A stretch of DNA of 64,000 nt from an uncultured archaeon (GCA_964407715.1 CAYOWP010000001.1:62652-126651); one strand, 5' to 3'; counted from the stretch's first letter, positions 13,905 through 56,430 are shown. A program made the numbers and translations. The notes: generated by a model from the letters alone, not told the origin.

Positions 13905-14565
13905 TTTAACCTTAAAAAGCGATTTGAAACAGATAACCTTTTTAAAGCAGTTAGCTGCTTAAAAAACCTTTGTGTTATTGAGATTTTCCCGTTAACAAAT
14001 TAAAAATTTTTAATAAAAATGGTTAACGGGAAGATATCACTATCACAAGCACATTACAGCATGCTACCCTCTTAAAAAAGGTTAGCTGCTTGAAAACGCT
14101 AAATGAAAGGGTTATGCTTCCCGTTAACAAATTATTTAAAAAATAAAAAATGGTTAACGGGAGGAAATCGCTATCATATAAAGTTTTGCAAGCATGCTAA
14201 CCTCTACAAAAGGTTAGCTGCTTCTTAACCGCTTTAGAAAGGTTAGCTGCTTCAATACGCCAAATGAAAGGGTTATGCTTCCCGTTAACCAATTATTTTA
14301 AAAATAAAAAATGGTTAACGGGAGGAAATCGCTTTCTCAAGGCACATCGCAGCATGCTAACCTCTTTTCAGGTTAGCTGCTTCAAACCGCTCGAGAAAAG
14401 GAGCTATGCTTTGATGCGCTATTGATAAGGTATGCTTCCCATTAACAATTTTTTAAATAATTTGGTTAACATGAGACCTCTCTTATCAATAGCACATTAA
14501 AGCATGGCATCCTTTCTTGAGCGGTTTGAAGCAGCTAATCTTTTAACCCTTAATTTGGTTAATAT
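13905..14565. repeat. Tandem array of phased palindromic modules
   Basis: Units TGGTTAACGGGA...CTTCCC(G/A)TTAAC at 14020-14130, 14151-14291 and 14312-14448 with central GCATGCTAACC-N-GGTTAGCTGC; AT linkers; partial units at both ends. Confidence 0.92.
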
Positions 14566-14636
14566 GCCGCAACTTACAGATTGACAAAAAAATTTGATAT
14601 AATTTTAAAAAATTATTTTTACATAATATAATCTTT

Positions 14637-15861: not shown

Positions 15862-16554
15862 ATGAGAGTAGGAGTATTATTTTCTGGAGGAAAGGATTCT
15901 ACTTTGGCATTGCATCTTGCTAAAGAACAGGGGTTAAAAATTGAATGCTTACTTTCCATTATTCCAAAAACACCAGAAAGCTATATGTTTCACTATCCTA
16001 ACATGCATCTGGTTGATGTACAAGCAAAGGCGATGGGCATACCGATAATAAATAGAATCACAAAAGGAAATAAAGAAGAGGAGCTAAAAGATTTAAAGTA
16101 TCTATTGAGTAAAGCTATCTCAAGATACAACATAGAAGGAATAGTAACAGGAGTAATAAGATCCTCATACCAAGCAACAAGAATAAAAAGAATCGCTAAG
16201 GAATTATCTTTGAAGGTATTTAATCCCTTGTGGTTAAAAGATGATGAGGAAGTATATTCCATGTTATCCGAAAGGAATTTTAGAGTGATTATTGTTGGAG
16301 TATATGCTTATCCTTTATCAGAGAAATATTTAGGTGAAGAATTGAGCAAAGAGGTGTATGAGGAGCTGCTAAGATATAAGAAAGAATATGGCATTAGTCT
16401 TGTTGGAGAGGGAGGAGAATTGGAAACCTTTGTTGTGGATGCCCCTCTTTTTAATTTTATGATTGAAATAATAGAATGCTCTAAGGAATATAAGAGATAT
16501 GAAGGAACATTAAAAATAAAAAAAGTGAGATTGGTAAAAAAGGATAAAAAATAA
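15862..16554 (+). CDS. Diphthine--ammonia ligase (Dph6 family)
   Basis: LFSGGKDS, SYMFH, PLW, GEGGELET. Confidence 0.88.
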   Translation: MRVGVLFSGGKDSTLALHLAKEQGLKIECLLSIIPKTPESYMFHYPNMHLVDVQAKAMGIPIINRITKGNKEEELKDLKYLLSKAISRYNIEGIVTGVIRSSYQATRIKRIAKELSLKVFNPLWLKDDEEVYSMLSERNFRVIIVGVYAYPLSEKYLGEELSKEVYEELLRYKKEYGISLVGEGGELETFVVDAPLFNFMIEIIECSKEYKRYEGTLKIKKVRLVKKDKK

Positions 16555-16628
16555 GCCCCAGGCGGGATTCGAACCCGCGGCCTCCACCTTACCAAGGTGG
16601 CGCTCTAACCAGGCTGAGCTACTGGGGC
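16554..16628 (-). tRNA. tRNA-Thr(GGT)
   Basis: GCCCCAG acceptor stem, anticodon arm CCACC-TTGGTAA-GGTGG, GGTTCGAATC T-loop; CCA not encoded. Confidence 0.96.
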
Positions 16629-19628: not shown

Positions 19629-19826
19629 CAGTTAACAGAAAACATATCCAATTCATCAGGAGGATTTTAGTGTTGTAATACTTAAAAAGCGGTTAGGAGC
19701 GGGTATCCTTTTACATGGATCATCCTGCTATAATATCCTAATGATAGAGATATTTTCCTGTTAACTATTTTATTAAAGAATTTGTAACCATATCAAAAGC
19801 ATTCCGTATAGCAGTTAACCTTTTAA
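19629..19826. repeat. Degenerate phased palindromic module(s)
   Basis: CAGTTAACAGAAAACATA...GATATTTTCCTGTTAAC, internal GCGGTTAG, trailing GCAGTTAACC. Confidence 0.6.
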
Positions 19827-19835
19827 GGAAATGAG

Positions 19836-19862
19836 GGCATTATCCAATACTTCTTTATTGTT
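19836..19862. mobile_element. MITE remnant (left TIR only)
   Basis: GGCATTATCCAATACTTCTTTATTGTT flanked by direct AAATGAG (19829-19835 and 19863-19869). Confidence 0.65.
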
Positions 19863-20045
19863 AAATGAGATCTATAAGATAACATTATTTTCATTTTATA
19901 TTCTCCATTATATATTTTTAAGTATATTAACATAATTATGTTTAATCACTACAATATATATTTTGAAATGTTAAAATCACTTAAAAGTAGTGAAAAGGAA
20001 TTTTGTGGCTCCTTTATCTTTCATATGTTTATGCGAACAAAAATT

Positions 20046-20590
20046 CAGTTAACGAAAAAATGTGCTTCTTGATATCTCTCAGGTTTGCAGCATGGTAATC
20101 TCAATAAAGGGTTAGCTGCTTTCTAACCGCTTCGGAAAGGTTAGTATGTTCTGATATGCTATTGATAAAGTACTCTTCCTGTTAACCAATATTTTATTTT
20201 GAACCCTCTCGCAGCATACTACCCTCTACAAAAGCCATCAATGTGTTCGCATAAGGTTTATTATGCGAATTTTATTACTTGGTTAAGGGAAAGCATAGCC
20301 ATATCCAAAAACCACTTTCAAGCAGCTAACCCTTTATTGAGGTTACCATGCAGCAATGTGGTTGTGAAAGTGATTTCCTCCCATTAACCATTTTTATTTT
20401 GGTTAACGGGCAGCATAACCTATTCATTCAGCATATCGAAGCAGCTAACCTTCTTAAGCGGTTAGTATGCTGCAATGTGCCTTAAAGAGGTGATATCCTC
20501 CCGTTAACCTTTTATTTTAAATAAAAATGGTTAAGGGGAAGAATCCCTTCTTAAAAAAAGTGTATCGAAGCAGCTAACCTTTATAGAAGG
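20046..20590. repeat. Array of phased palindromic modules surrounding the dif-like site
   Basis: Unit 20046-20188 and partial 20211-20234 in one orientation; 20280-20390, 20400-20510 and half unit 20528-20590 in the other. Confidence 0.9.
20244..20271. other. Candidate dif (Xer recombination) site
   Basis: TGTTCGCATAA-GGTTTA-TTATGCGAATT: 11-6-11 layout, symmetric arms resembling the E. coli dif XerC arm GGTGCGCATAA; xerA is 10 kb away. Confidence 0.8.
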
Positions 20591-24261: not shown

Positions 24262-24334
24262 CGCCCCGGCCAGGACTCGAACCTGGGACCTCGTGGTTAA
24301 CAGCCACGCGCTCTACCTACTGAGCTACCGGGGC
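24262..24334 (-). tRNA. tRNA-Asn(GTT)
   Basis: Anticodon arm CGTGG-CTGTTAA-CCACG, GGTTCGAGTCC T-arm. Confidence 0.96.
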
Positions 24335-24349
24335 TTAGCATTTATTATA

Positions 24350-24423
24350 TGGACCCCGTGGGATTCGAACCCACGGCCTCCCGCTTGCAAGGCGGGCGTT
24401 CTACCAGACTGAACTAGGGGCCC
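24350..24423 (-). tRNA. tRNA-Ala(TGC)
   Basis: Anticodon arm CCCGC-CTTGCAA-GCGGG; G3:U70 identity pair. Confidence 0.96.
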
Positions 24424-47005: not shown

Positions 47006-47566
47006 TCATATAGAATCAGAACCACTATCAAAATCCTCTTCTTTGATATCTCTCTTAGCAAAAAATTCCCTTAACTCATTCTCATTCTTTAATCCAAAGT
47101 ATCTTAAAAATTTCTTTGTAATTCTAAGTACATTATAGTTCCCAACCTTCTCAACGCTCACAAACCCTCTATTAATAAGCTCCTTTATTTGTTCATATGC
47201 TCTGTGTCCTCTTATTCTTACAACTTCTTTTTGTTTTATGGGGGATCTATATGCTATCAATGCCAATGTTTGTAATGTTGCTCTAGAGAAATCTTTATAA
47301 GGTGCTAAGTGCTCCACATACTTAAGATATGCTTCTCTTATTGTTAAATCATAAGATTCATTAGGAAGTTTCCTTATTGAAAAAGGCAAATTATTCTCCT
47401 TAAATTTTTTATCTATGCTTAAAAGCAAACTCTCTATATGATCTTTTGTTAGTTTCTTTGATGAATTCTTATTATTGAGCACATTATATAGCTCATGAAC
47501 CTTAAGCGGATTCTGAGAAACAAATAATGCAGAAATTATTATGCTCTCAATTTCATCAAACATCAT
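47006..47566 (-). CDS. scpB: SMC-Scp complex subunit ScpB
   Basis: SALFVS, TLALIAYRSP, RIRG, TKKFLRYFGL. Confidence 0.92.
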   Translation of the reverse strand: MMFDEIESIIISALFVSQNPLKVHELYNVLNNKNSSKKLTKDHIESLLLSIDKKFKENNLPFSIRKLPNESYDLTIREAYLKYVEHLAPYKDFSRATLQTLALIAYRSPIKQKEVVRIRGHRAYEQIKELINRGFVSVEKVGNYNVLRITKKFLRYFGLKNENELREFFAKRDIKEEDFDSGSDSI

Positions 47567-48321
47567 CCATCCTCCTCCTTAAAAGGATATATTTTTATCT
47601 CATCAAATGGCCTTTCTTGAACACATCTTATTCTCTCCTCATTGTTCAGATGTAACACAGCTTCTAAAGTAATTATCTTATCATAGGCATCTCTTTTTTC
47701 AAGTAATTTGGAAAATATGGCAACATGATTTACATTAAACATCTTAATTATCTTCTCATATGTCTTCTCTATCATTTCACGTATATCAAATTTGTTCATC
47801 TCAAATATGAATTCCTCATCTCTAATGGCTTTTCTTCTTGATTTCAATGCCTTCTCCAAGGCATCAATGAGCTCGTGAAGAGTAACCTTGCGTTTAATAG
47901 GTTTTTTAATTGGCAAAAAGATTGGAGGGAGATTTATAATCCTAACATTCTCATTACCTTCATTCAACAATTGATTTAGCATTTCAGAATTTATTTCAAT
48001 ATGCTCCCCATCATCCTCGGATGCTTGGCTTTCATGATCTTCCTTAAAGAATTCTGACTTCATTCTATATATTAAGGCAGCAATAAGTATCATTTTAGCG
48101 GGTATTTTGAGATCTCTACACCTAAGCTCCTCTAAACATCTTAGAAATCTTTCATTAAGTAAAGTAAGGTCAATATCCCAAGGATCCATATCATGTGTAA
48201 GATGCTCAATAACATCTCTCCATTTTTCATTTAAAATCATCTGGAGAATCTTTTCATGAACATCATCACTATTTTCGCATAACTCTTCATATCTATGCTT
48301 GGATATGCCTATAGGTATCAT
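47563..48321 (-). CDS. scpA: Kleisin ScpA
   Basis: MDPWDIDL, AALIYRMKS, RKVTLHELI, QERPFDEI. Confidence 0.9.
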   Translation of the reverse strand: MIPIGISKHRYEELCENSDDVHEKILQMILNEKWRDVIEHLTHDMDPWDIDLTLLNERFLRCLEELRCRDLKIPAKMILIAALIYRMKSEFFKEDHESQASEDDGEHIEINSEMLNQLLNEGNENVRIINLPPIFLPIKKPIKRKVTLHELIDALEKALKSRRKAIRDEEFIFEMNKFDIREMIEKTYEKIIKMFNVNHVAIFSKLLEKRDAYDKIITLEAVLHLNNEERIRCVQERPFDEIKIYPFKEEDG

Positions 48322-49687: not shown

Positions 49688-50380
49688 TTATTTTCCAAAT
49701 CTCCTTTCCTTTTGTTTAAATTCCTCTATAATTTTTAAAAAGTCATCTTTTGTTATCTCAGGCCAGAATTTGTCCACAAAGAATATCTCCGCATATGCAA
49801 TTTGAAATAATAAGAAATTACTTATCCTCGTTTCCTTTCCTGTTCTTATTAAAATATCCACATCATTTTGTACCCATAAATATTTTTTGAAATCTTCCTC
49901 ATCACCATCCTTAAATCTCTTTGCAGCATAAACAATCTCTTTTCTTCCTCCATATCCTAAAAGCAAATGTAATTTTTTCTTTTTAGTATCCCTTTTTGAA
50001 TACTTTTTAAAATACTTCTCTAATTTCTCTATTGTTTTCTGTACAATTTCCTTAATATCTTCTCTTTTAAGAAGGATTTCTTTTTTGTAATGTAGATGTA
50101 TATCATATGTGCTGTTCAAGTCCTTATAAATCTTCGGTATCATCTCTTGAGCAATCTTTATTAATCCTTGCAATTCCTCTTTTTTTCTTTTAGCAATATT
50201 CTCGCTTGAGAGAAGAAATATACTAACCTCATTAATCTCGTCAATCTCGCTACACCATCTTATGAAATCTATAATTCTCTTAGCACCTTCTTTATGTCCT
50301 GCAGTTACGCTTAATCCTCTCTCTTGAGCCCATCTTCTATTTCCATCTGGTATCAAAGCAACATGCATAACTAATCTCAT
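49688..50380 (-). CDS. uppS: cis-prenyltransferase (UppS family)
   Basis: HVALIPDGNRRWA, SSEN, YGGR, LIRTG, RISNFL. Confidence 0.93.
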   Translation of the reverse strand: MRLVMHVALIPDGNRRWAQERGLSVTAGHKEGAKRIIDFIRWCSEIDEINEVSIFLLSSENIAKRKKEELQGLIKIAQEMIPKIYKDLNSTYDIHLHYKKEILLKREDIKEIVQKTIEKLEKYFKKYSKRDTKKKKLHLLLGYGGRKEIVYAAKRFKDGDEEDFKKYLWVQNDVDILIRTGKETRISNFLLFQIAYAEIFFVDKFWPEITKDDFLKIIEEFKQKERRFGK

Positions 50381-50420
50381 ACAAAACCCGTTTTAAAAAA
50401 GTTTAATATAAGTTCTGGAT

Positions 50421-50905
50421 TGGTTAATGGGAAGCATAACCCATCAAGAGAGCATATCAAAGCAGCTAACCTTTTGTAGAGGTTAGCATGCTGTAATATG
50501 CTATTGAAAAGGAGATTTCTTCCCGTTAACCATTCATTGAATAAATAAAGAATGGTTAACGGGAAGTATAGCCATATCCAGAGCATATCAAAGCAGCTAA
50601 CCTTTTGTAGAGGTTAGCATGCTATAATTTGGCTTTGAAAAGCGATTTCTTCCCGTTAACCATTTTTTATTTAAATAATAAAAATTGGTTAAGGGGAAGA
50701 ATACCTTCTTTAAAAAGCATATCAAAGCAGCTAACCTTTTGTAGAGGATTAGCATACTGTAATGTGGAGTTATGAAGGCAACATCTTCCTGTTAACCATT
50801 TGTCTCGCAGCAGCTAACCTCCTATAGAGGTTAAGAAGCAACTAACCTTTTAAAGCTGTTACTATACTGTAAAACCTTTATAGGAAGGATATCTTTCTGT
50901 TAACT
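50421..50905. repeat. Tandem array of phased palindromic modules
   Basis: Units 50421-50532, 50553-50662 and 50686-50798 (period 132-133 bp) plus partial 50807-50905; central GCAGCTAACCTTTTGTAGAGG(A)TTAGCAT in all three. Confidence 0.95.
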
Positions 50906-50921
50906 TTATCAATAGAGATTG

Positions 50922-52124
50922 TTATAAAAGGAGGATTTGAGTCATTATATGCTTAATTTGTTTCTTTAGGAAGGATTTGTCAATTACATTATACAGAAAA
51001 TAATCGGCCATTGCAATGGGAAAGCATTTATTTAACTTTTTAAGTTCTCTCAAATCACGAGCATAGGTATCTTCATAGCTTAATCTCCTTTCTTTCCTAT
51101 TTATTAATCTGAAATATCTTTGATTTTTATGAGATATCAAAGAAATTAAAATAATCTCCGCATCACATATATTTTCTTTCAAAAATAAATATTCTTCCCA
51201 ACTGTATAACCCATCTATTATTATCACACGACTCTTTTCTAATAGCTCACAAATTCTCTGAAAGTTTAGCTTGGCAAAGGCTTCCATCCCATATTTCTCT
51301 CTCAATAATTCCCTTATTTTTCTCTCGCTCTCTTCATTTTTTTCCATATTCTTCTTTTTTATATACTCATCAGTGATATCCCCAAATCTAATATAAGGAA
51401 ATCCATAGATCCCTGTGATAATATCTCTTGCTGTTGTTTTTCCGCTTCCGGGCATACCAACCAAAGCAATAATTATCTTTGTAAACAATCTCTTTAACTC
51501 TGTAATAGAATATATTAATGGAAAATTATTTTCAAAAGCACATTTTTCATCTAAGCAGCTTCCGCATATGCCTATAAACCTTATACCTGCATTTGATGCC
51601 ATCTTATAATCAAGAACGCCATCACCAACAAATATTATTTCATCACATGAAAGGTTATATTTTTCCTTAATATAGTTGATGGCATCTGGTTCAGGCTTTT
51701 CTTTGAATCCATCTTCTTTTGTAGATATTATCTCCAAAAAATATGAGGATATGCGATTCTCTTCAAGTACATTTTTCATTATCTGTTTATTACTTCCGCT
51801 AATAATGAACAATAACACTCCCTTTTCTTTAAGAAACCTAAGAATTTCCTTTACTCCTCTTTTTATTTTTATTTTGGAAATGAATTCATCGTTTCTAACA
51901 TTTTTCAGATATTCCTTTACTATTTCCTCGTATTTATCACAATTTTCCCCAACAACATCTCTAATGATCTTTGTATAAGTATAACCCAACATGTACATTA
52001 TTTTCTTTTTTTCAACATTAAAGCCATATTTTTTAAAGACAGAGTAAAATACATCAACATATGCATCTACACTCTCAACCAATGTGCCATCAAAGTCAAA
52101 AATGATGGCTTTTATTTCTGCCAT
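50922..52124 (-). CDS. HAD phosphatase fused to a P-loop nucleotide kinase (UPF0200/dephospho-CoA kinase-like)
   Basis: FDFDGTL, KPEPD, VGDG..D, then VGMPGSGKTT, FGD, IDG, RD..E. Confidence 0.82.
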   Translation of the reverse strand: MAEIKAIIFDFDGTLVESVDAYVDVFYSVFKKYGFNVEKKKIMYMLGYTYTKIIRDVVGENCDKYEEIVKEYLKNVRNDEFISKIKIKRGVKEILRFLKEKGVLLFIISGSNKQIMKNVLEENRISSYFLEIISTKEDGFKEKPEPDAINYIKEKYNLSCDEIIFVGDGVLDYKMASNAGIRFIGICGSCLDEKCAFENNFPLIYSITELKRLFTKIIIALVGMPGSGKTTARDIITGIYGFPYIRFGDITDEYIKKKNMEKNEESERKIRELLREKYGMEAFAKLNFQRICELLEKSRVIIIDGLYSWEEYLFLKENICDAEIILISLISHKNQRYFRLINRKERRLSYEDTYARDLRELKKLNKCFPIAMADYFLYNVIDKSFLKKQIKHIMTQILLL

Positions 52125-52180: not shown

Positions 52181-52430
52181 AACATTGTCCAATAACTCTC
52201 TATTTGTTAAGCGGAAAAGTAACCTCTTAAAGAAGCATATTAGAGCAGCAAAGCTTGTAGAGCTAATGCGATTGTAAGGACGAGTTTTCTCATTAACAAA
52301 CCCTCATCAAAAAATTATTTGACAATTTGTTAACGGGAAGCATAGCCCTATTCGAAGGGTTAACTGCTCTCATGCGCTTCTTTGAGAGGTTATGTTTCCG
52401 CTTAACAATAAAGAATTATTGGACAATGCC
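52181..52430. mobile_element. 250-bp MITE with about 70-bp imperfect inverted ends
   Basis: Left AACATTGTCCAATAACTC..., right ...GAATTATTGGACAATGCC; internal TTGTTAACGGGAAGCATAGCCC; no TSD seen. Confidence 0.85.
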
Positions 52431-52476
52431 CATAATATACAAATTTAAAAAAATTTCAAAACCTAAATTTAAATAT

Positions 52477-53145
52477 ATGATTACATTCAAATATATAAGA
52501 GAGATTTATGAAAATGAAAAAAAACATAGAAATCTTCAAAAATTGGATGATGATTTTATCAAAAAAATTAATGATTATTTACAAAGAAAGGAGAAATTAA
52601 TAGAAAAGTCTTCAAAGACAGTGATGGATTATTCCGTTATTAATGAGGTAGAAAACTTCAGGAGCCTGCTTAGGAACTTGTTAGAGTTAAGAAAAAAGAA
52701 AATCTTGTTGTTGGCATTAAATCATGCTTTATCTCCACCATCAACATTTGATGAAACTATATTTTTAGACTTTGAAAAGAAGTTATATGAGAAAATTATA
52801 GATGAATTAAAGAATTTTAATGATGAAGTTGAGCATGTTTTCAGTACAGAAGCAAAAGATAAAGAAAAAGTAACAGAAAAAGAGAATGAGAAATCTCAGG
52901 AAAAAAAAGAAGAAAAAGAAATGGATAAAACTTTACTACATCAAACAAATAAAACTGAAATCATGGAAGAAAAGAAAGATTCGAAGTATATGGTTGAAGC
53001 AACAGAAAATATTCCCTCTTTCCTTACCTATAAAAAAGATTTTCTTGGGCCATATATGAAAGGAGAAAGATTTATATGCGACAAAAAAATTGCAGATATG
53101 CTGAAAAAATTGAATAAGATAAAGATTCTATATGAAATTGAATAA
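52477..53145 (+). CDS. GINS complex subunit (Gins15/51 type)
   Basis: ITF...EK...LQKLDDDF, RKKKI, C-terminal B-domain IPSF...GPY..G; upstream ORF extension lies in the MITE. Confidence 0.78.
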   Translation: MITFKYIREIYENEKKHRNLQKLDDDFIKKINDYLQRKEKLIEKSSKTVMDYSVINEVENFRSLLRNLLELRKKKILLLALNHALSPPSTFDETIFLDFEKKLYEKIIDELKNFNDEVEHVFSTEAKDKEKVTEKENEKSQEKKEEKEMDKTLLHQTNKTEIMEEKKDSKYMVEATENIPSFLTYKKDFLGPYMKGERFICDKKIADMLKKLNKIKILYEIE

Positions 53146-53154
53146 ATTCAAAGA

Positions 53155-56100
53155 TTATATAGAATACAAATCCTCATCCATCTCTATTTTAGGTTTTGAA
53201 GAAGAATATTTGATCACAACATACACTACTATCACCATTAAAATTACCAAGAATAAGAAAATAGCCAAATATTTGCCATAAGGTGGTTTTCTCTCTGGCA
53301 TAGAAAGAAATTCCTTATAATATTGCAACTCATCTATGCCTTGTTTATATACATCTAAATCTCCAACAGATGCTATAGAGAGATATTCTTCATAGAAATT
53401 ACATATATTTTCATAATCAAGCACATCTTGTCCACTAAGATGGCTTCTTATCTTTTTTACATTTTCTTCATTTACGCATATCTCATTATATAAGGACTCA
53501 AACCTCTCCTTTAGCTCTTCATATGTAGAAAGATAATATTGCGTATAATTGCATCTTTTAAGTTCTCCTCTATAAGTAGTTGCGTTCGCATAAAGCTCAT
53601 TTAAGGTTTCTCTTGATTCAATATCTATCAAATCTATTGTTCTTCTTTTTTGTTTAGCGCTTGGCAACCAGACTTCACATATCTCTGAGATATCCAAATT
53701 CTCACAACTTTTATTATTAAGAATATCACAAAGATACTCTATCTCATCCAATATCTCATCCAATTCCATCAATTTATCTTGAAGAGGTGATTCTTCAACT
53801 TTCTTTATGCTTGCTAATGTTTCATAAGTTAATATCACAAATGAAACATCATATTTTGTACGTAACAAAATGAATGTAAGTGTCACATTTTTACCGCATT
53901 TTCCTAAGATGTCATTTCTTATCTCAATTGGTATTCTATAATTCCCAGGTTCTGATATTACATATAACTCTTTATTTTCATATATTGTGTGAGGACTACA
54001 CATCTCAGATGATATCCTAATCTTAAGTCCTATTGTGCCCATATTATCAACATTGGTAAGCATATTTAAGGTTCCTGAACCAATGCCTTTATTTTTATCA
54101 TATAAAATAACTCTATCATCTAATGATAAAGATATATCCCTATTTGCTGAAATTATTTTTTTACGTATTGTAAAATTAATTAATGTTTTATCACCATACC
54201 CTATCGTTACTTTATTGCTTGAATTCAAATTCGCTCCAAATAGATATAGGGTTAGCATATATTCTTCTCCTGAAGAGAACATATTCTCGTTGTTATCTTT
54301 ATCTAATACAGGTTTAATATTTATCATGGCAGGATTATTATTTATTAATACCTTAAAATAGTCCATATTAAGATTTTGATCCCCTATATTTTTTAGATAA
54401 AGGTTTATTTTCTGAATATCATATATGTTATCAAACTCAATATCTATAATTTCGTTTTTCCTTAGTTTTCTCTTAAAACCTCTATCAGAAATATATGCTG
54501 TTAAGTGCATTCCGCTTAATCTTTCAAGAATCTCTATGCACTTTTCAAATACAGCAAGATAGTCATTTATTGTGTACTCAAAAGAAAGGCAATTAAATCC
54601 ATACTCAAAGATATAATTTGATGGTATCTCAAAAGTGGTATTTATAGAGTACATATCATTATGTGATGTATAAGAAACCTCAACACTCTCTTTATCTTTT
54701 AGAGAAGTGTATATTTTTGCATCTTCAAGAGATCCTGTTATTGGCTGTGAAAATAAGCTAATAACCTCTGCTCCCTCTCCCTTAAAGAATTCAGTAGAAG
54801 AGATATAAGTATATGAAGGTATAATCATAAAATCAAGGGGGATAGAAATTCTTTTATGTATGATTTCTCCATTTACATTTCCATCTATCTCCAAATTAAG
54901 CATAGGAGTGGTTAAAGAGCAAGTGATATTTGGAGGCAATCTAATCAAATATCCCGTAATTCTTCCATTATTGTCTATCATATAATTCTCGCTAGTTATT
55001 TTTTCTATAGAAAGATCATCAATGTTGCAATTATTATCTCCTATATTTAGAATCTCAACAGTAAGGGAATTATCATATACAACATTGCCATGTTTATCTT
55101 CAAGATAAGGAACAAAAAAAGCCAGAATATCACTACCCGCAAGATATGCCTCTGGGTGTATATGCTCCACATACTCTCTAACTGATGTGATGGTATAATT
55201 TAACTTAACATTGTATGCAAATTCATCAGAGATTTCAATCTCTCTTGAGGTATTATATTCTATTATATCTCCATATCCATTCCTATATTTTACCACATAT
55301 ACAATACCTATTGATTTACCAGAAAATGATTTATCTATCGCATACACCATTTCATCATCATTTTGTGGATTATAAGGTATTGTACTTAATATTTGTCCAT
55401 TATCCCTATCAACAATCTGAAAATATCTCTCCTCTATTGTTCCGCTATCCCCAATATCATATTCATCATAATTTTCCATTTTTATTGTTAAGTTCTGCCC
55501 ATAATAATATCTTCCATCCAAATCTTTAATACCCTCTATTATCAAATCTCCAGAATATACTTTTGGATAAAACAATACAGATTTTGATATACAATTATTT
55601 GATGTATCACCTCTACAATACTCTGCTAAAGATACTCCTTGAGGTAATTCTCCCATCACAATTAAAGGAGATATGAGCAATGATTTCTTTGGAGTTCCTG
55701 TTCGTGGGATAGCAATATCAAACAAAAAGCACGTTCTATCTTCACATAAATTCTCAGAAATTTCTGATGATATGAAGTGAAGCGAATACGTCTCTCTCAT
55801 ATATAATATGCTCATCGGATTTTCTAATGATGAAAGATATATTGGATGTTGGGTATTGATATCAATCACATATAATTTAAGCAACATATTTTCTCCAGGT
55901 GATTTTGAGGTATAGTAAACAGAATCTGCATAACCTCCAGATAATCCGCTATATTTTTTGATGATGTCAGAGCTTTCAAATAAAATATCATAATAATTGT
56001 TTTCTGATAACACATAATCAAGTTTATCTTTTAAGTTCACTCCACAATAAAGGTATATGATGCCGGTACTCACTATATTCTTTGTATCAACACAATATAA

Positions 56101-56430
56101 GCCTGCAATATTATTGTAAGGAATAAGATTTGGAGCATTATTATTGCTATCTCTAATGTTAAAGTTATTACATGTAGCTCTAAAGCATATGTACTTATTT
56201 TGTTGTGCAATAGAGGAAACCTGCGTAATTATAGCATTATTTGTAAGCTCATCAGTACCTCCATATATGATTGATGGAATACCAAAAACCTCAATACCTG
56301 TAGAGGAGTTATAATACACATCATTTTGAGGAATTTCAGAGCTTGATATTCCAAAACTTAAAGAAAAGTATGAAATCAAAAATAACACAAATGAGAACAC
56401 AAACCTTAAACTCTCTTTTTTCTTAACCAT
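53155..56430 (-). CDS. Large cell-surface protein with signal peptide and C-terminal TM
   Basis: 1091 aa; beta-rich Cys-containing body, helical stalk, TM near C-terminus. Confidence 0.7.
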   Translation of the reverse strand: MVKKKESLRFVFSFVLFLISYFSLSFGISSSEIPQNDVYYNSSTGIEVFGIPSIIYGGTDELTNNAIITQVSSIAQQNKYICFRATCNNFNIRDSNNNAPNLIPYNNIAGLYCVDTKNIVSTGIIYLYCGVNLKDKLDYVLSENNYYDILFESSDIIKKYSGLSGGYADSVYYTSKSPGENMLLKLYVIDINTQHPIYLSSLENPMSILYMRETYSLHFISSEISENLCEDRTCFLFDIAIPRTGTPKKSLLISPLIVMGELPQGVSLAEYCRGDTSNNCISKSVLFYPKVYSGDLIIEGIKDLDGRYYYGQNLTIKMENYDEYDIGDSGTIEERYFQIVDRDNGQILSTIPYNPQNDDEMVYAIDKSFSGKSIGIVYVVKYRNGYGDIIEYNTSREIEISDEFAYNVKLNYTITSVREYVEHIHPEAYLAGSDILAFFVPYLEDKHGNVVYDNSLTVEILNIGDNNCNIDDLSIEKITSENYMIDNNGRITGYLIRLPPNITCSLTTPMLNLEIDGNVNGEIIHKRISIPLDFMIIPSYTYISSTEFFKGEGAEVISLFSQPITGSLEDAKIYTSLKDKESVEVSYTSHNDMYSINTTFEIPSNYIFEYGFNCLSFEYTINDYLAVFEKCIEILERLSGMHLTAYISDRGFKRKLRKNEIIDIEFDNIYDIQKINLYLKNIGDQNLNMDYFKVLINNNPAMINIKPVLDKDNNENMFSSGEEYMLTLYLFGANLNSSNKVTIGYGDKTLINFTIRKKIISANRDISLSLDDRVILYDKNKGIGSGTLNMLTNVDNMGTIGLKIRISSEMCSPHTIYENKELYVISEPGNYRIPIEIRNDILGKCGKNVTLTFILLRTKYDVSFVILTYETLASIKKVEESPLQDKLMELDEILDEIEYLCDILNNKSCENLDISEICEVWLPSAKQKRRTIDLIDIESRETLNELYANATTYRGELKRCNYTQYYLSTYEELKERFESLYNEICVNEENVKKIRSHLSGQDVLDYENICNFYEEYLSIASVGDLDVYKQGIDELQYYKEFLSMPERKPPYGKYLAIFLFLVILMVIVVYVVIKYSSSKPKIEMDEDLYSI

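Follow-up and report, generated by a model that had tools for sequence, protein, structure and literature searches.

A lineage-specific family of REP/BIME- and MITE-like palindromic repeats in the small genome of an uncultured archaeon

Anatomy of the repeat array

The stretch of DNA analyzed here (“the window”) comprises 64,000 nucleotides from an uncultured archaeon (GCA_964407715.1, CAYOWP010000001.1:62652-126651). At positions 50421-50905 it carries an array of non-coding imperfect palindromes, separated by short A/T linkers and belonging to a family with hundreds of copies in the same genome. We consider it probable that the array is a lineage-specific selfish repeat, similar to REP/BIME elements and to MITEs (miniature inverted-repeat transposable elements), which is now remodelled by recombination. 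A first-pass annotation of the window, made from the sequence alone, had described the array as a transposon-spread DNA-architecture element. Its observations proved largely right, and its interpretation was supported in part.

The array contains three full units and a degenerate fourth, and lies between two genes of the minus strand, upstream of one and past the stop codon of the other. Unit positions refer to a profile hidden Markov model (HMM) of the family.

49688-50380, minus strand: flanking gene of the undecaprenyl-diphosphate-synthase (UPP-synthase) family (PF01255, E = 1.9e-54), with its start codon 40 bp from the left edge of the array
50421-50532, plus strand: unit 1, a 112-nt imperfect palindrome consisting of left end, left arm, core stem-loop (9-nt loop), right arm and right end; HMM positions 1-110
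50533-50552, no strand: linker 1, 20 nt, A/T apart from one or two G
50553-50662, plus strand: unit 2, 110 nt
50663-50685, no strand: linker 2, 23 nt, A/T only and itself near-palindromic
50686-50798, plus strand: unit 3, 113 nt, a copy in decay
50799-50905, plus strand: degenerate unit 4, lacking left end and left arm, with two tandem core hairpins, a right arm and a worn right end; HMM positions 39-108
50922-52124, minus strand: flanking gene for a HAD hydrolase fused to an AAA-type kinase-like domain (PF13419, E = 1.2e-35, and PF13238), with its stop codon 16 bp from the right edge of the array

The three full units share a left end, TGGTTAA(C/T/G)GGGAAG, and a right end, CTTCC(C/T)GTTAACCA. 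Their conserved core is formed by AAGCAGCTAACC, a 9-nt loop (TTTTGTAGA) and GGTTAGCATGCTG, with a variable arm on either side; the loop had initially been given as 11 nt. A one-base asymmetry of the core noticed at that stage is present (AAGCAGCTAACC on the left vs GGTTAGCATGCT on the right), and the column concerned is 80-89% conserved across the family. Consecutive full units start 132 and 133 bp apart, and Tandem Repeats Finder reported a period of 131 bp with 2.6 copies and 83% matches. Together with the unit coordinates, this confirmed the unit architecture, the 132-133-bp spacing and the 20-23-nt A/T linkers of the original description. As in MITEs, the units carry terminal inverted repeats, in this case of 14 nt. 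The 14-mer unit end (at most 2 mismatches) was found 24 times in the window vs 0.15 expected, a number reached in 0 of 100 shuffles.

The sequencing runs that contain this DNA are labelled hydrothermal vent metagenomes. DNA contigs of the run that is probably the source tile the array exactly. In two other vent samples, contigs span the left junction (50114-50489 and 50324-50474) without any differences, and are too fragmented at the repeats for units to be counted. In two genomes of the same family (G003 and G002), the UPP-synthase and methyltransferase genes are adjacent, as they are in this genome. There, the upstream gene abuts without a spacer, whereas a 541-bp gap with the array is present here; the upstream gene is a different one, so that this is not a clean empty site.

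Size and distribution of the repeat family

The HMM was seeded on the three units of the array and iterated once over the full assembly, which comprises 898,521 bp in 16 contigs and is 92% complete, with open reading frames (ORFs) of at least 90 aa serving as gene proxy for intergenic counts. This gave 453 non-overlapping matches covering 37.5 kb at 136 loci, of which 154 were full length, and 96 loci had two or more matches. The assembly is redundant by ~44 kb and genome-wide counts are inflated unless contig C9 is removed, because C9:262-43957 is a 100%-identical reverse-complement duplicate of C8:7161-50856 (43,696 bp). The non-redundant figures are therefore 428 matches and ~4.1% of ~855 kb. 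Only 937 bp of the repeat lie inside ORFs, and the family makes up ~27% of the non-ORF DNA.

Within the window, 23 HMM matches at 9 loci account for 1,887 bp, which is less than the roughly 11 loci and 3 kb originally estimated. Besides the array, the following loci belong to the family.

13912-14573, no strand: loci at 13912-14411 (five HMM matches) and 14512-14573 (one match)
19681-20590, no strand: loci at 19681-19765, 20048-20188 and 20280-20590; the strongest 10-bp signal lies at 20400-20527
31104-31230, plus strand: locus with two partial HMM matches
63774-63995, plus strand: locus cut off at the end of the window and contig, whose junction of right end, linker and left end is 89% identical to 50509-50569

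The family appears confined to this lineage. This genome contains 121 occurrences of the core motif, and none was found in 60 other genomes, among them a genome of the same genus (87% completeness). A blastn search against 40 relatives returned a single match of 26 nt (E = 5.4e-4, in genome G030). An exact scan for the core motif in a collection with one genome per species gave just six single, unrelated matches (Rheinheimera), and viral contigs gave 0 matches to the core motif and seven single matches to the 18-mer end of the sub-family described below, which is about chance level. In metagenomes, the core motif was found in contigs of the same species, 99-99.9% identical, and in one further single match. 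Self-matches numbered 0-4 in 10-60-kb samples of four related genomes vs 243 in 60 kb here, a comparison based on small samples and fragmented assemblies. No Rfam family reached its threshold, the best score being 27 bits against cut-offs of 60-140. Within the limits of the Rfam, species-genome and viral-contig searches, these results agree with the initial impression that no described archaeal family matches. A CRISPR array was considered and rejected, given that the variable arms are homologous between copies and share local haplotypes, and that the linkers are A/T-only and alike.

Two further observations concern the family as a whole. GTTAAC (HpaI-type) sites are concentrated in it, with 405 of the 591 sites in the genome falling in repeats. 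Of the 32 contig ends, ten have a family match no more than 300 bp away, indicating that the repeats limit the assembly.

Divergence, mosaicism and array growth

The copies are old and diverged from one another. For 112 units from non-redundant copies, the divergence from the nearest neighbour had a median of 0.21 and a minimum of 0.10. An array-mate was included in the set for 88 of the 112 units, and was the nearest neighbour for only 15. Relationships of the left arms and of the right arms were uncorrelated (Spearman 0.03). Unit 2 illustrates this: the closest relative of its left arm belongs to a unit at C1:16285 (4% different), located 97 kb away, and that of its right arm to one at C1:38484 (5%), making unit 2 a mosaic. 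Array-mates nevertheless tend to point the same way, head-to-tail: orientation is uniform within 25 of 31 arrays, and of the 86 units whose strand could be resolved, 80 follow the majority. Head-to-tail orientation combined with uncorrelated arms agrees with units that were first duplicated in tandem and later exchanged short tracts with other copies.

A comparison between strains was possible with a metagenome contig of the same species (L032, 7,743 bp), which joins the starts of contigs C1 (1-927) and C11 (1-3076) across ~3.6 kb, with flanks ~99-100% identical. Compared with the array at C11:1330-2169, the copy in this contig is about one unit longer and its substitutions are clustered, both sequences being short-read assemblies. 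The difference is suggestive of recent recombination.

Hairpin potential and covariation

Folded as single-stranded DNA, the intact units are predicted to be stable, with -26.2 kcal/mol (z = -7.0) for unit 1 and -26.4 kcal/mol (z = -8.2) for unit 2. This potential is reduced in unit 3 (-15.1 kcal/mol, z = -2.7) and lost in unit 4 (z = -0.4). When the folded stretch has a linker at its centre instead (50486-50617), the result is as stable as for a unit (-29.7 kcal/mol, z = -8.4), which means that the array is a chain of alternating palindromes and not a row of discrete hairpins.

To separate a hairpin from a bending constraint, covariation had been proposed as a test; the tests capable of telling the two apart supported neither. 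Arms paired with their own partner scored 5.15 and with partners from other copies 5.20 (118 full units). In 107 distinct rows of the alignment, 74.6% of cells were paired vs 75.8% in partner-shuffled controls, and double changes numbered 119 vs 159. Common variants, such as G at column 8 (40 of 107 rows) and C at column 66 (29 of 107), are uncompensated. Linkage between polymorphic columns is local only: the mean -log10 p is 1.60 for columns at most 5 nt apart, 0.34 for those separated by more than 20 nt, and 0.41 for mirror positions. Since pairing with the own partner is no better than with shuffled ones, variants are uncompensated and mirror positions are not linked, we conclude that no hairpin, of RNA or DNA, is maintained copy by copy. 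The compensatory changes and curated family match that would mark a structured RNA were likewise found neither in the pairing and linkage tests nor in Rfam.

Periodicity of G/C bases

The first-pass annotation had noted G/C dinucleotides recurring about every 10 bp. Unit 1 contains 15 G/C-dinucleotide clusters, of which 11 had been listed, with those at 50422, 50434, 50465 and 50486 omitted. Over 123 full units, the mean power of the G/C track was 4.4 at 10.0 bp and 5.2 at 5.8 bp, vs ~1 in coding, other intergenic and shuffled DNA, and the 10.0-bp power was at least 3 in 93 of the 123 units vs 8.9% of shuffled units. The 10-bp phasing exists in the form of a spectral component that is second in strength to the one at 5.8 bp.

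For the array as a whole, the spectrum of G/C dinucleotides (SS) has its top peak at 10.25 bp, reached by 7 of 500 dinucleotide shuffles, a significance that is inflated by the tandem repetition. The spectrum of A/T dinucleotides (WW) was reached by 80 of 500 shuffles and is not significant. When the three full units were analyzed one by one in the 9.5-11-bp band, 15-39 of 500 dinucleotide shuffles reached the values for S (single G/C bases) or SS and 21-87 of 500 those for WW. The strongest period in nine tests of unit by track (S, SS and WW; three units) was 5.9-6.0 bp in five and 10.1-10.3 bp in four. At a second locus, for which phasing had been noted at 20409-20508, the stretch 20400-20527 has a clear 10.0-bp peak that 0-6 of 500 shuffles reach, much stronger than in the units of the array.

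The outcome for the family profile depends on the null model. At 10 bp, column permutation gave p = 0.0025 and run-length permutation p = 0.009, vs p = 0.07 for run-length permutation that preserves the palindrome. Separate halves of the unit gave p = 0.06 (left) and p = 0.008 (right) at 10 bp, vs p < 0.001 in each at 5.8 bp. Autocorrelation over the arrays peaks at lags 11 (0.12), 29-30 (0.07-0.08), 41 and 58-59, and is ~0.02 at lag 10, -0.02 at lag 20 and ~zero at lag 50. Taken together, the spectra and the autocorrelation indicate that the two spectral lines may be harmonics of a ~29-bp sub-structure set by the spacing of GGTTA/TAACC blocks, which have a density of 29 per kb in the repeats vs 1.7 outside. 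The 5.8-5.9-bp periodicity and the peaks at 29-30 and 58-59 also hint at an ancient sub-repeat of ~29 bp inside the unit.

Polymorphic G/C columns, for example column 80, belong at least partly to local arm haplotypes. The linkers of the family (n = 135) have a mode of 18-21 nt, a range of 7-24 nt and a mean GC content of 7%, and their lengths show no helical quantisation. A/T-only pentamers have a frequency of 0.047 in the units, 0.72 in the linkers and 0.141 genome-wide. The G/C rhythm is real as a description; it is weak, ranking second to the 5.8-bp one, probably goes back to the founder sequence, and bears no sign of maintenance that our tests could detect. As all copies descend from one ancestor, the periodicity is in effect a single observation.

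A transposon-related sub-family

A related sub-family carries one or two modules between 19-nt inverted ends of the GGCATTGTCCAATAATTCT type, which may resemble the ends of IS903. In the genome, 142 matches to these ends (at most 4 mismatches) and 41 paired elements were found, whose interior aligns with positions 3-108 of the unit HMM. Of the 41 pairs, 7 have identical 9-bp flanks and 10 have 9-bp flanks with a single difference (17/41 with at most one mismatch). One such element is present in the window.

52181-52430, no strand: composite sub-family element with insertion sequence (IS)-type inverted ends around two relatives of the module; its flanks differ at 4 of 9 positions

The IS-type ends are found at 22 of 40 loci with one match and at 22 of 32 loci with two matches, and are absent from 53 of the 64 loci with three or more. 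Among the arrays with intact termini, a flanking direct repeat of at least 5 bp was seen in only 1 of 29, so that the target duplication typical of MITEs is not found for the arrays. The 92%-complete short-read assembly contains no domain of the types DDE_Tnp_1 (PF01609), DDE_Tnp_1_5 (PF13737), Y1_Tnp (PF01797) or TnpB (PF07282). An autonomous MITE partner with matching ends was looked for through PF01609 and PF13737, both without match in this assembly. The absence of a transposase is weak evidence, given the completeness of the assembly, its short-read origin and the position of 10 of its 32 contig ends beside family matches. The suggested spread by transposons holds only in part: it fits the sub-family, with its ends and the matching 9-bp flanks (at most one mismatch) of 17 of 41 elements. 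The arrays differ, as they mostly lack such ends (53/64) and duplications (28/29), and no transposase was found in the assembly.

Two other modes of insertion were considered and rejected. One was a mobile unit spanning the distance between successive cores, in which the 9-nt loop would represent a 9-bp target duplication; the arrays start and stop sharply at TGG...CCA, and the sub-family carries the core uninterrupted. The other was insertion into a GGTTAACC target with duplication of TTAA; TGGTTAACCA occurs once and GGTTAACC nine times in the genome, none of them resembling an empty site.

Genomic context

The distance from the array edge to start codons has a 5th percentile of 43 bp and a median of 99 bp (n = 174). 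Stop codons may abut the arrays, with a 5th percentile of 4 bp (n = 87). Orientation relative to genes is unbiased, with 25 arrays in the same direction and 28 in the opposite one. A single histone-fold gene is present in the genome (C5:34813-34980). Other features of the window are as follows.

16554-16628, 24262-24334 and 24350-24423, minus strand: three tRNA genes, 66-67% G+C vs 32% G+C for the genome
34201-36582, plus strand: full-length gene for DNA gyrase subunit A (gyrA; PF00521, E = 4e-164, plus six C-terminal repeats)
47563-48321, minus strand: ScpA-like gene, from a Pfam profile search
52327-53145, plus strand: 272-aa ORF without a Pfam match at E <= 1e-5
53155-56430, minus strand: 1,091-aa ORF without a Pfam match at E <= 1e-5

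The G+C content of the tRNA genes in a genome of 32% G+C suggests a thermophilic host. The 5' end of the 272-aa ORF may be spurious, because this ORF starts inside the composite element at 52181-52430.

Comparison with known repeat systems

The closest known systems are the REP/BIME/REPIN clusters and the MITEs derived from insertion sequences. REP units have a length of ~35-40 nt, REP/BIME elements are classically located at 3' ends, and binding of gyrase, IHF or Pol I counts among their characteristics. As in the REP/BIME/REPIN systems of enterobacteria and pseudomonads, the vent repeats are short, intergenic imperfect palindromes with hundreds of copies and a lineage-specific sequence. They are clustered into mosaic arrays, where half-palindromes of alternating orientation are joined by short, specific linkers. 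They differ in a unit of 110 nt, which is ~3 times longer, in an archaeal host with a histone gene, in a preference of the arrays for divergent gaps rather than 3' ends, and in RAYT (Y1/HUH, PF01797), which is without match in this assembly. The analogy with REP/BIME/REPIN, already drawn in the first-pass annotation, therefore holds for the layout of intergenic imperfect palindromes in mosaic clusters, and not for the RAYT or the 3'-end placement.

The MJRE1-3 repeats of Methanocaldococcus jannaschii, reportedly described in 2005 by Suyama, Lathe and Bork in FEBS Lett, are said to be old, diverged palindromic intergenic repeats that make up a noticeable share of the extragenic DNA of an AT-rich hyperthermophile. 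The vent repeat is denser, occupying ~4% of its genome vs reportedly roughly 1% for MJRE, and no Methanocaldococcus record was among the matches when the species genome collection was scanned for the core motif.

MITEs are known in archaea, as outlined in a review (PMC10969869). The sub-family resembles the MITEs of the IS5 family (IS903 group) and the archaeal MITEs SM1-SM4 of Sulfolobus in its inverted ends, 9-bp target duplications, length of 90-390 bp and non-coding nature. The arrays are different, being tandem, head-to-tail, mostly without IS-type ends (53/64 loci) and without target duplications, and no partner transposase was found.

A third comparison is with sequence codes for nucleosome positioning and gyrase wrapping. 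According to PMC6379681, BIME-2 binds gyrase and its repeats are enriched for gyrase cuts, and the gyrase motif of E. coli extends over 130 bp with a 36-bp centre and two 47-bp periodic flanks. The vent repeat shares with these codes, as outlined in PMC3691661 and PMC6379681, linkers of the excluded A/T-only kind, a period of ~130 bp and, less clearly, a ~10-bp alternation of G/C and A/T. It differs in that its 10-bp component is second to that at 5.8 bp, goes back to one ancestor and is not apparent in the autocorrelation at lags 10, 20 and 30.

Origin of the arrays and alternative explanations

Direct observations show how the family is built, how abundant it is and how it is distributed, as well as its mosaicism, its biased placement and its lack of covariation. 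As their probable explanation we favour a selfish repeat with the following history. The module common to the arrays and the MITE sub-family with its 9-bp target duplications would link the origin of the family to a DDE-type insertion sequence that is no longer in the assembly. The arrays would most likely have grown by tandem duplication or unequal crossing-over of the 110-nt unit together with a ~19-nt A/T linker. Later, as the arrays decayed, short-tract recombination between the hundreds of copies may have reshuffled them. In a compact genome they would persist where they are least harmful, mainly between divergent genes and at least ~45 bp from start codons. The ~10-bp and 5.8-bp G/C rhythms and the hairpin potential would stem from the spacing of GGTTA/TAACC blocks in the founder, and would not be kept copy by copy.

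Several observations weigh against this explanation. Arrays are present at 60+ loci without a mobilising enzyme or target duplication having been found, and ~4% of old repeat is a heavy load for a streamlined genome of ~0.86 Mb. The repeat occurs in 53 of 142 divergent gaps vs 43 of 442 co-directional and 14 of 143 convergent ones (chi-square p = 2e-15). Such a placement could result from purifying selection leaving only promoter-distal space, from targets that are preferentially A/T-rich, or from some function in the gaps that separate divergent promoters. The conserved blocks diverge less from the consensus than the arms (0.133 vs 0.349, a 2-2.6-fold gap). Detection bias does not explain this, because a simulation of uniform decay under the same detection gave 0.29 for blocks vs 0.38 for arms, and the gap persists in pairs that share a local arm haplotype (0.15-0.19 vs 0.28-0.31). 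The gap is the strongest argument that something reads the blocks, which could be a past mobilising machinery or a host factor, with selection at the level of the element and of the host both fitting. The 10-bp component is also in the same phase in variable columns and in conserved blocks (-0.55 and -0.58 rad; arms-only permutation p = 0.0076).

One alternative is a domesticated architecture element of double-stranded DNA, with ~131-bp units wrapped or bound by histone, gyrase or a sequence-specific reader of the GGTTA(A/G)C blocks, and with the A/T linkers acting as spacers free of protein. In this case, arrays located between divergent promoters would serve to organise chromatin or to buffer supercoiling. 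The 10.0-bp component of most units, its common phase in variable columns and conserved blocks, block conservation beyond detection bias, the bias towards divergent gaps, the concentration of GGTTA/TAACC in the repeats, and the presence of gyrA in the window and a histone gene in the genome all agree with it. So does the scarcity of A/T-only pentamers in the units and their richness in the linkers, which match the rules for archaeal nucleosomes as outlined in PMC3691661. The 131-133-bp period with a conserved core of ~38 bp and two flanks likewise resembles the E. coli gyrase motif of PMC6379681. Nevertheless, we regard this explanation as unlikely. The strongest period is 5.8 bp and not 10, autocorrelation is ~zero at lags 10, 20 and 50, shuffles that preserve the palindrome give no better than p = 0.07, and the array lacks a significant WW signal. 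The claim that phasing persists where the sequence diverges is partly borne out by the variable columns, but the minority bases do not follow the wave, their S fraction giving Spearman values of 0.13 (p = 0.43) and 0.28 (p = 0.34). Linkers of 7-24 nt show no helical register, the number of units differs between near-identical strains, and the family was not found in the same-genus genome or 59 others. Gyrase sites are expected downstream of genes, yet convergent gaps are poorest in arrays. With the signal lying in the ancestral consensus, and given the minority bases, the linker lengths and the absence from the same-genus genome, the tests lend no support to the DNA-architecture element originally proposed. 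Decidedly doubtful, too, is its most specific form, in which G/C-richer segments of 110 bp with GGTTA blocks in ~10-bp register would be wrapped by histone or gyrase (~130-bp footprint), the A/T linkers would exclude protein, and the arrays would insulate divergent promoters or absorb supercoiling.

The family could instead be a hairpin transposon of the REPIN type that is still active, its 110-nt palindrome moved as single-stranded DNA by an HUH or other transposase encoded in the unassembled 8% or in a partner organism, and inserted without target duplication beside existing copies in A/T-rich DNA. Sharp termini (TGG...CCA), A/T-rich flanks and the lack of a target duplication in 28 of 29 arrays are in line with this, as are the strong folds of intact units (z = -7 to -8). 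That 10 of the 32 contig ends have a family match no more than 300 bp away further indicates that repeats, perhaps including insertion sequences, are under-assembled. We judge such activity rather improbable. The assembly yielded neither a Y1 transposase (PF01797) nor a TnpB-type domain (PF07282), all non-redundant copies are at least 10% divergent from each other, the uniform head-to-tail order is unlike independent insertions of a palindrome, and according to the pairing and linkage tests the hairpin is not being kept intact. A highly improbable explanation is that the hairpins encode structured RNA genes or elements of transcripts, such as small RNAs, terminators or stabilisers of mRNA. The predicted hairpins are stable, and the A/T-rich linkers could in principle hold archaeal TATA-like boxes. 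No Rfam family reached threshold, however, compensatory changes are missing, orientation to genes is unbiased (25 same, 28 opposite), and the arrays are mostly upstream of genes and not at 3' ends.

The selfish repeat remodelled by recombination thus stays the probable reading, and as it stands the array would exemplify the invasion of a very small archaeal genome by selfish palindromic repeats. It bears on the tolerance of repeats in streamlined, symbiont-type genomes. For annotation, it is of value to recognize such repeats, which interrupt assemblies and give rise to spurious small ORFs. Should block conservation and the preference for divergent gaps be due to a host function, the family would represent an archaeal counterpart of the BIMEs, linked to wrapping by histone or gyrase.

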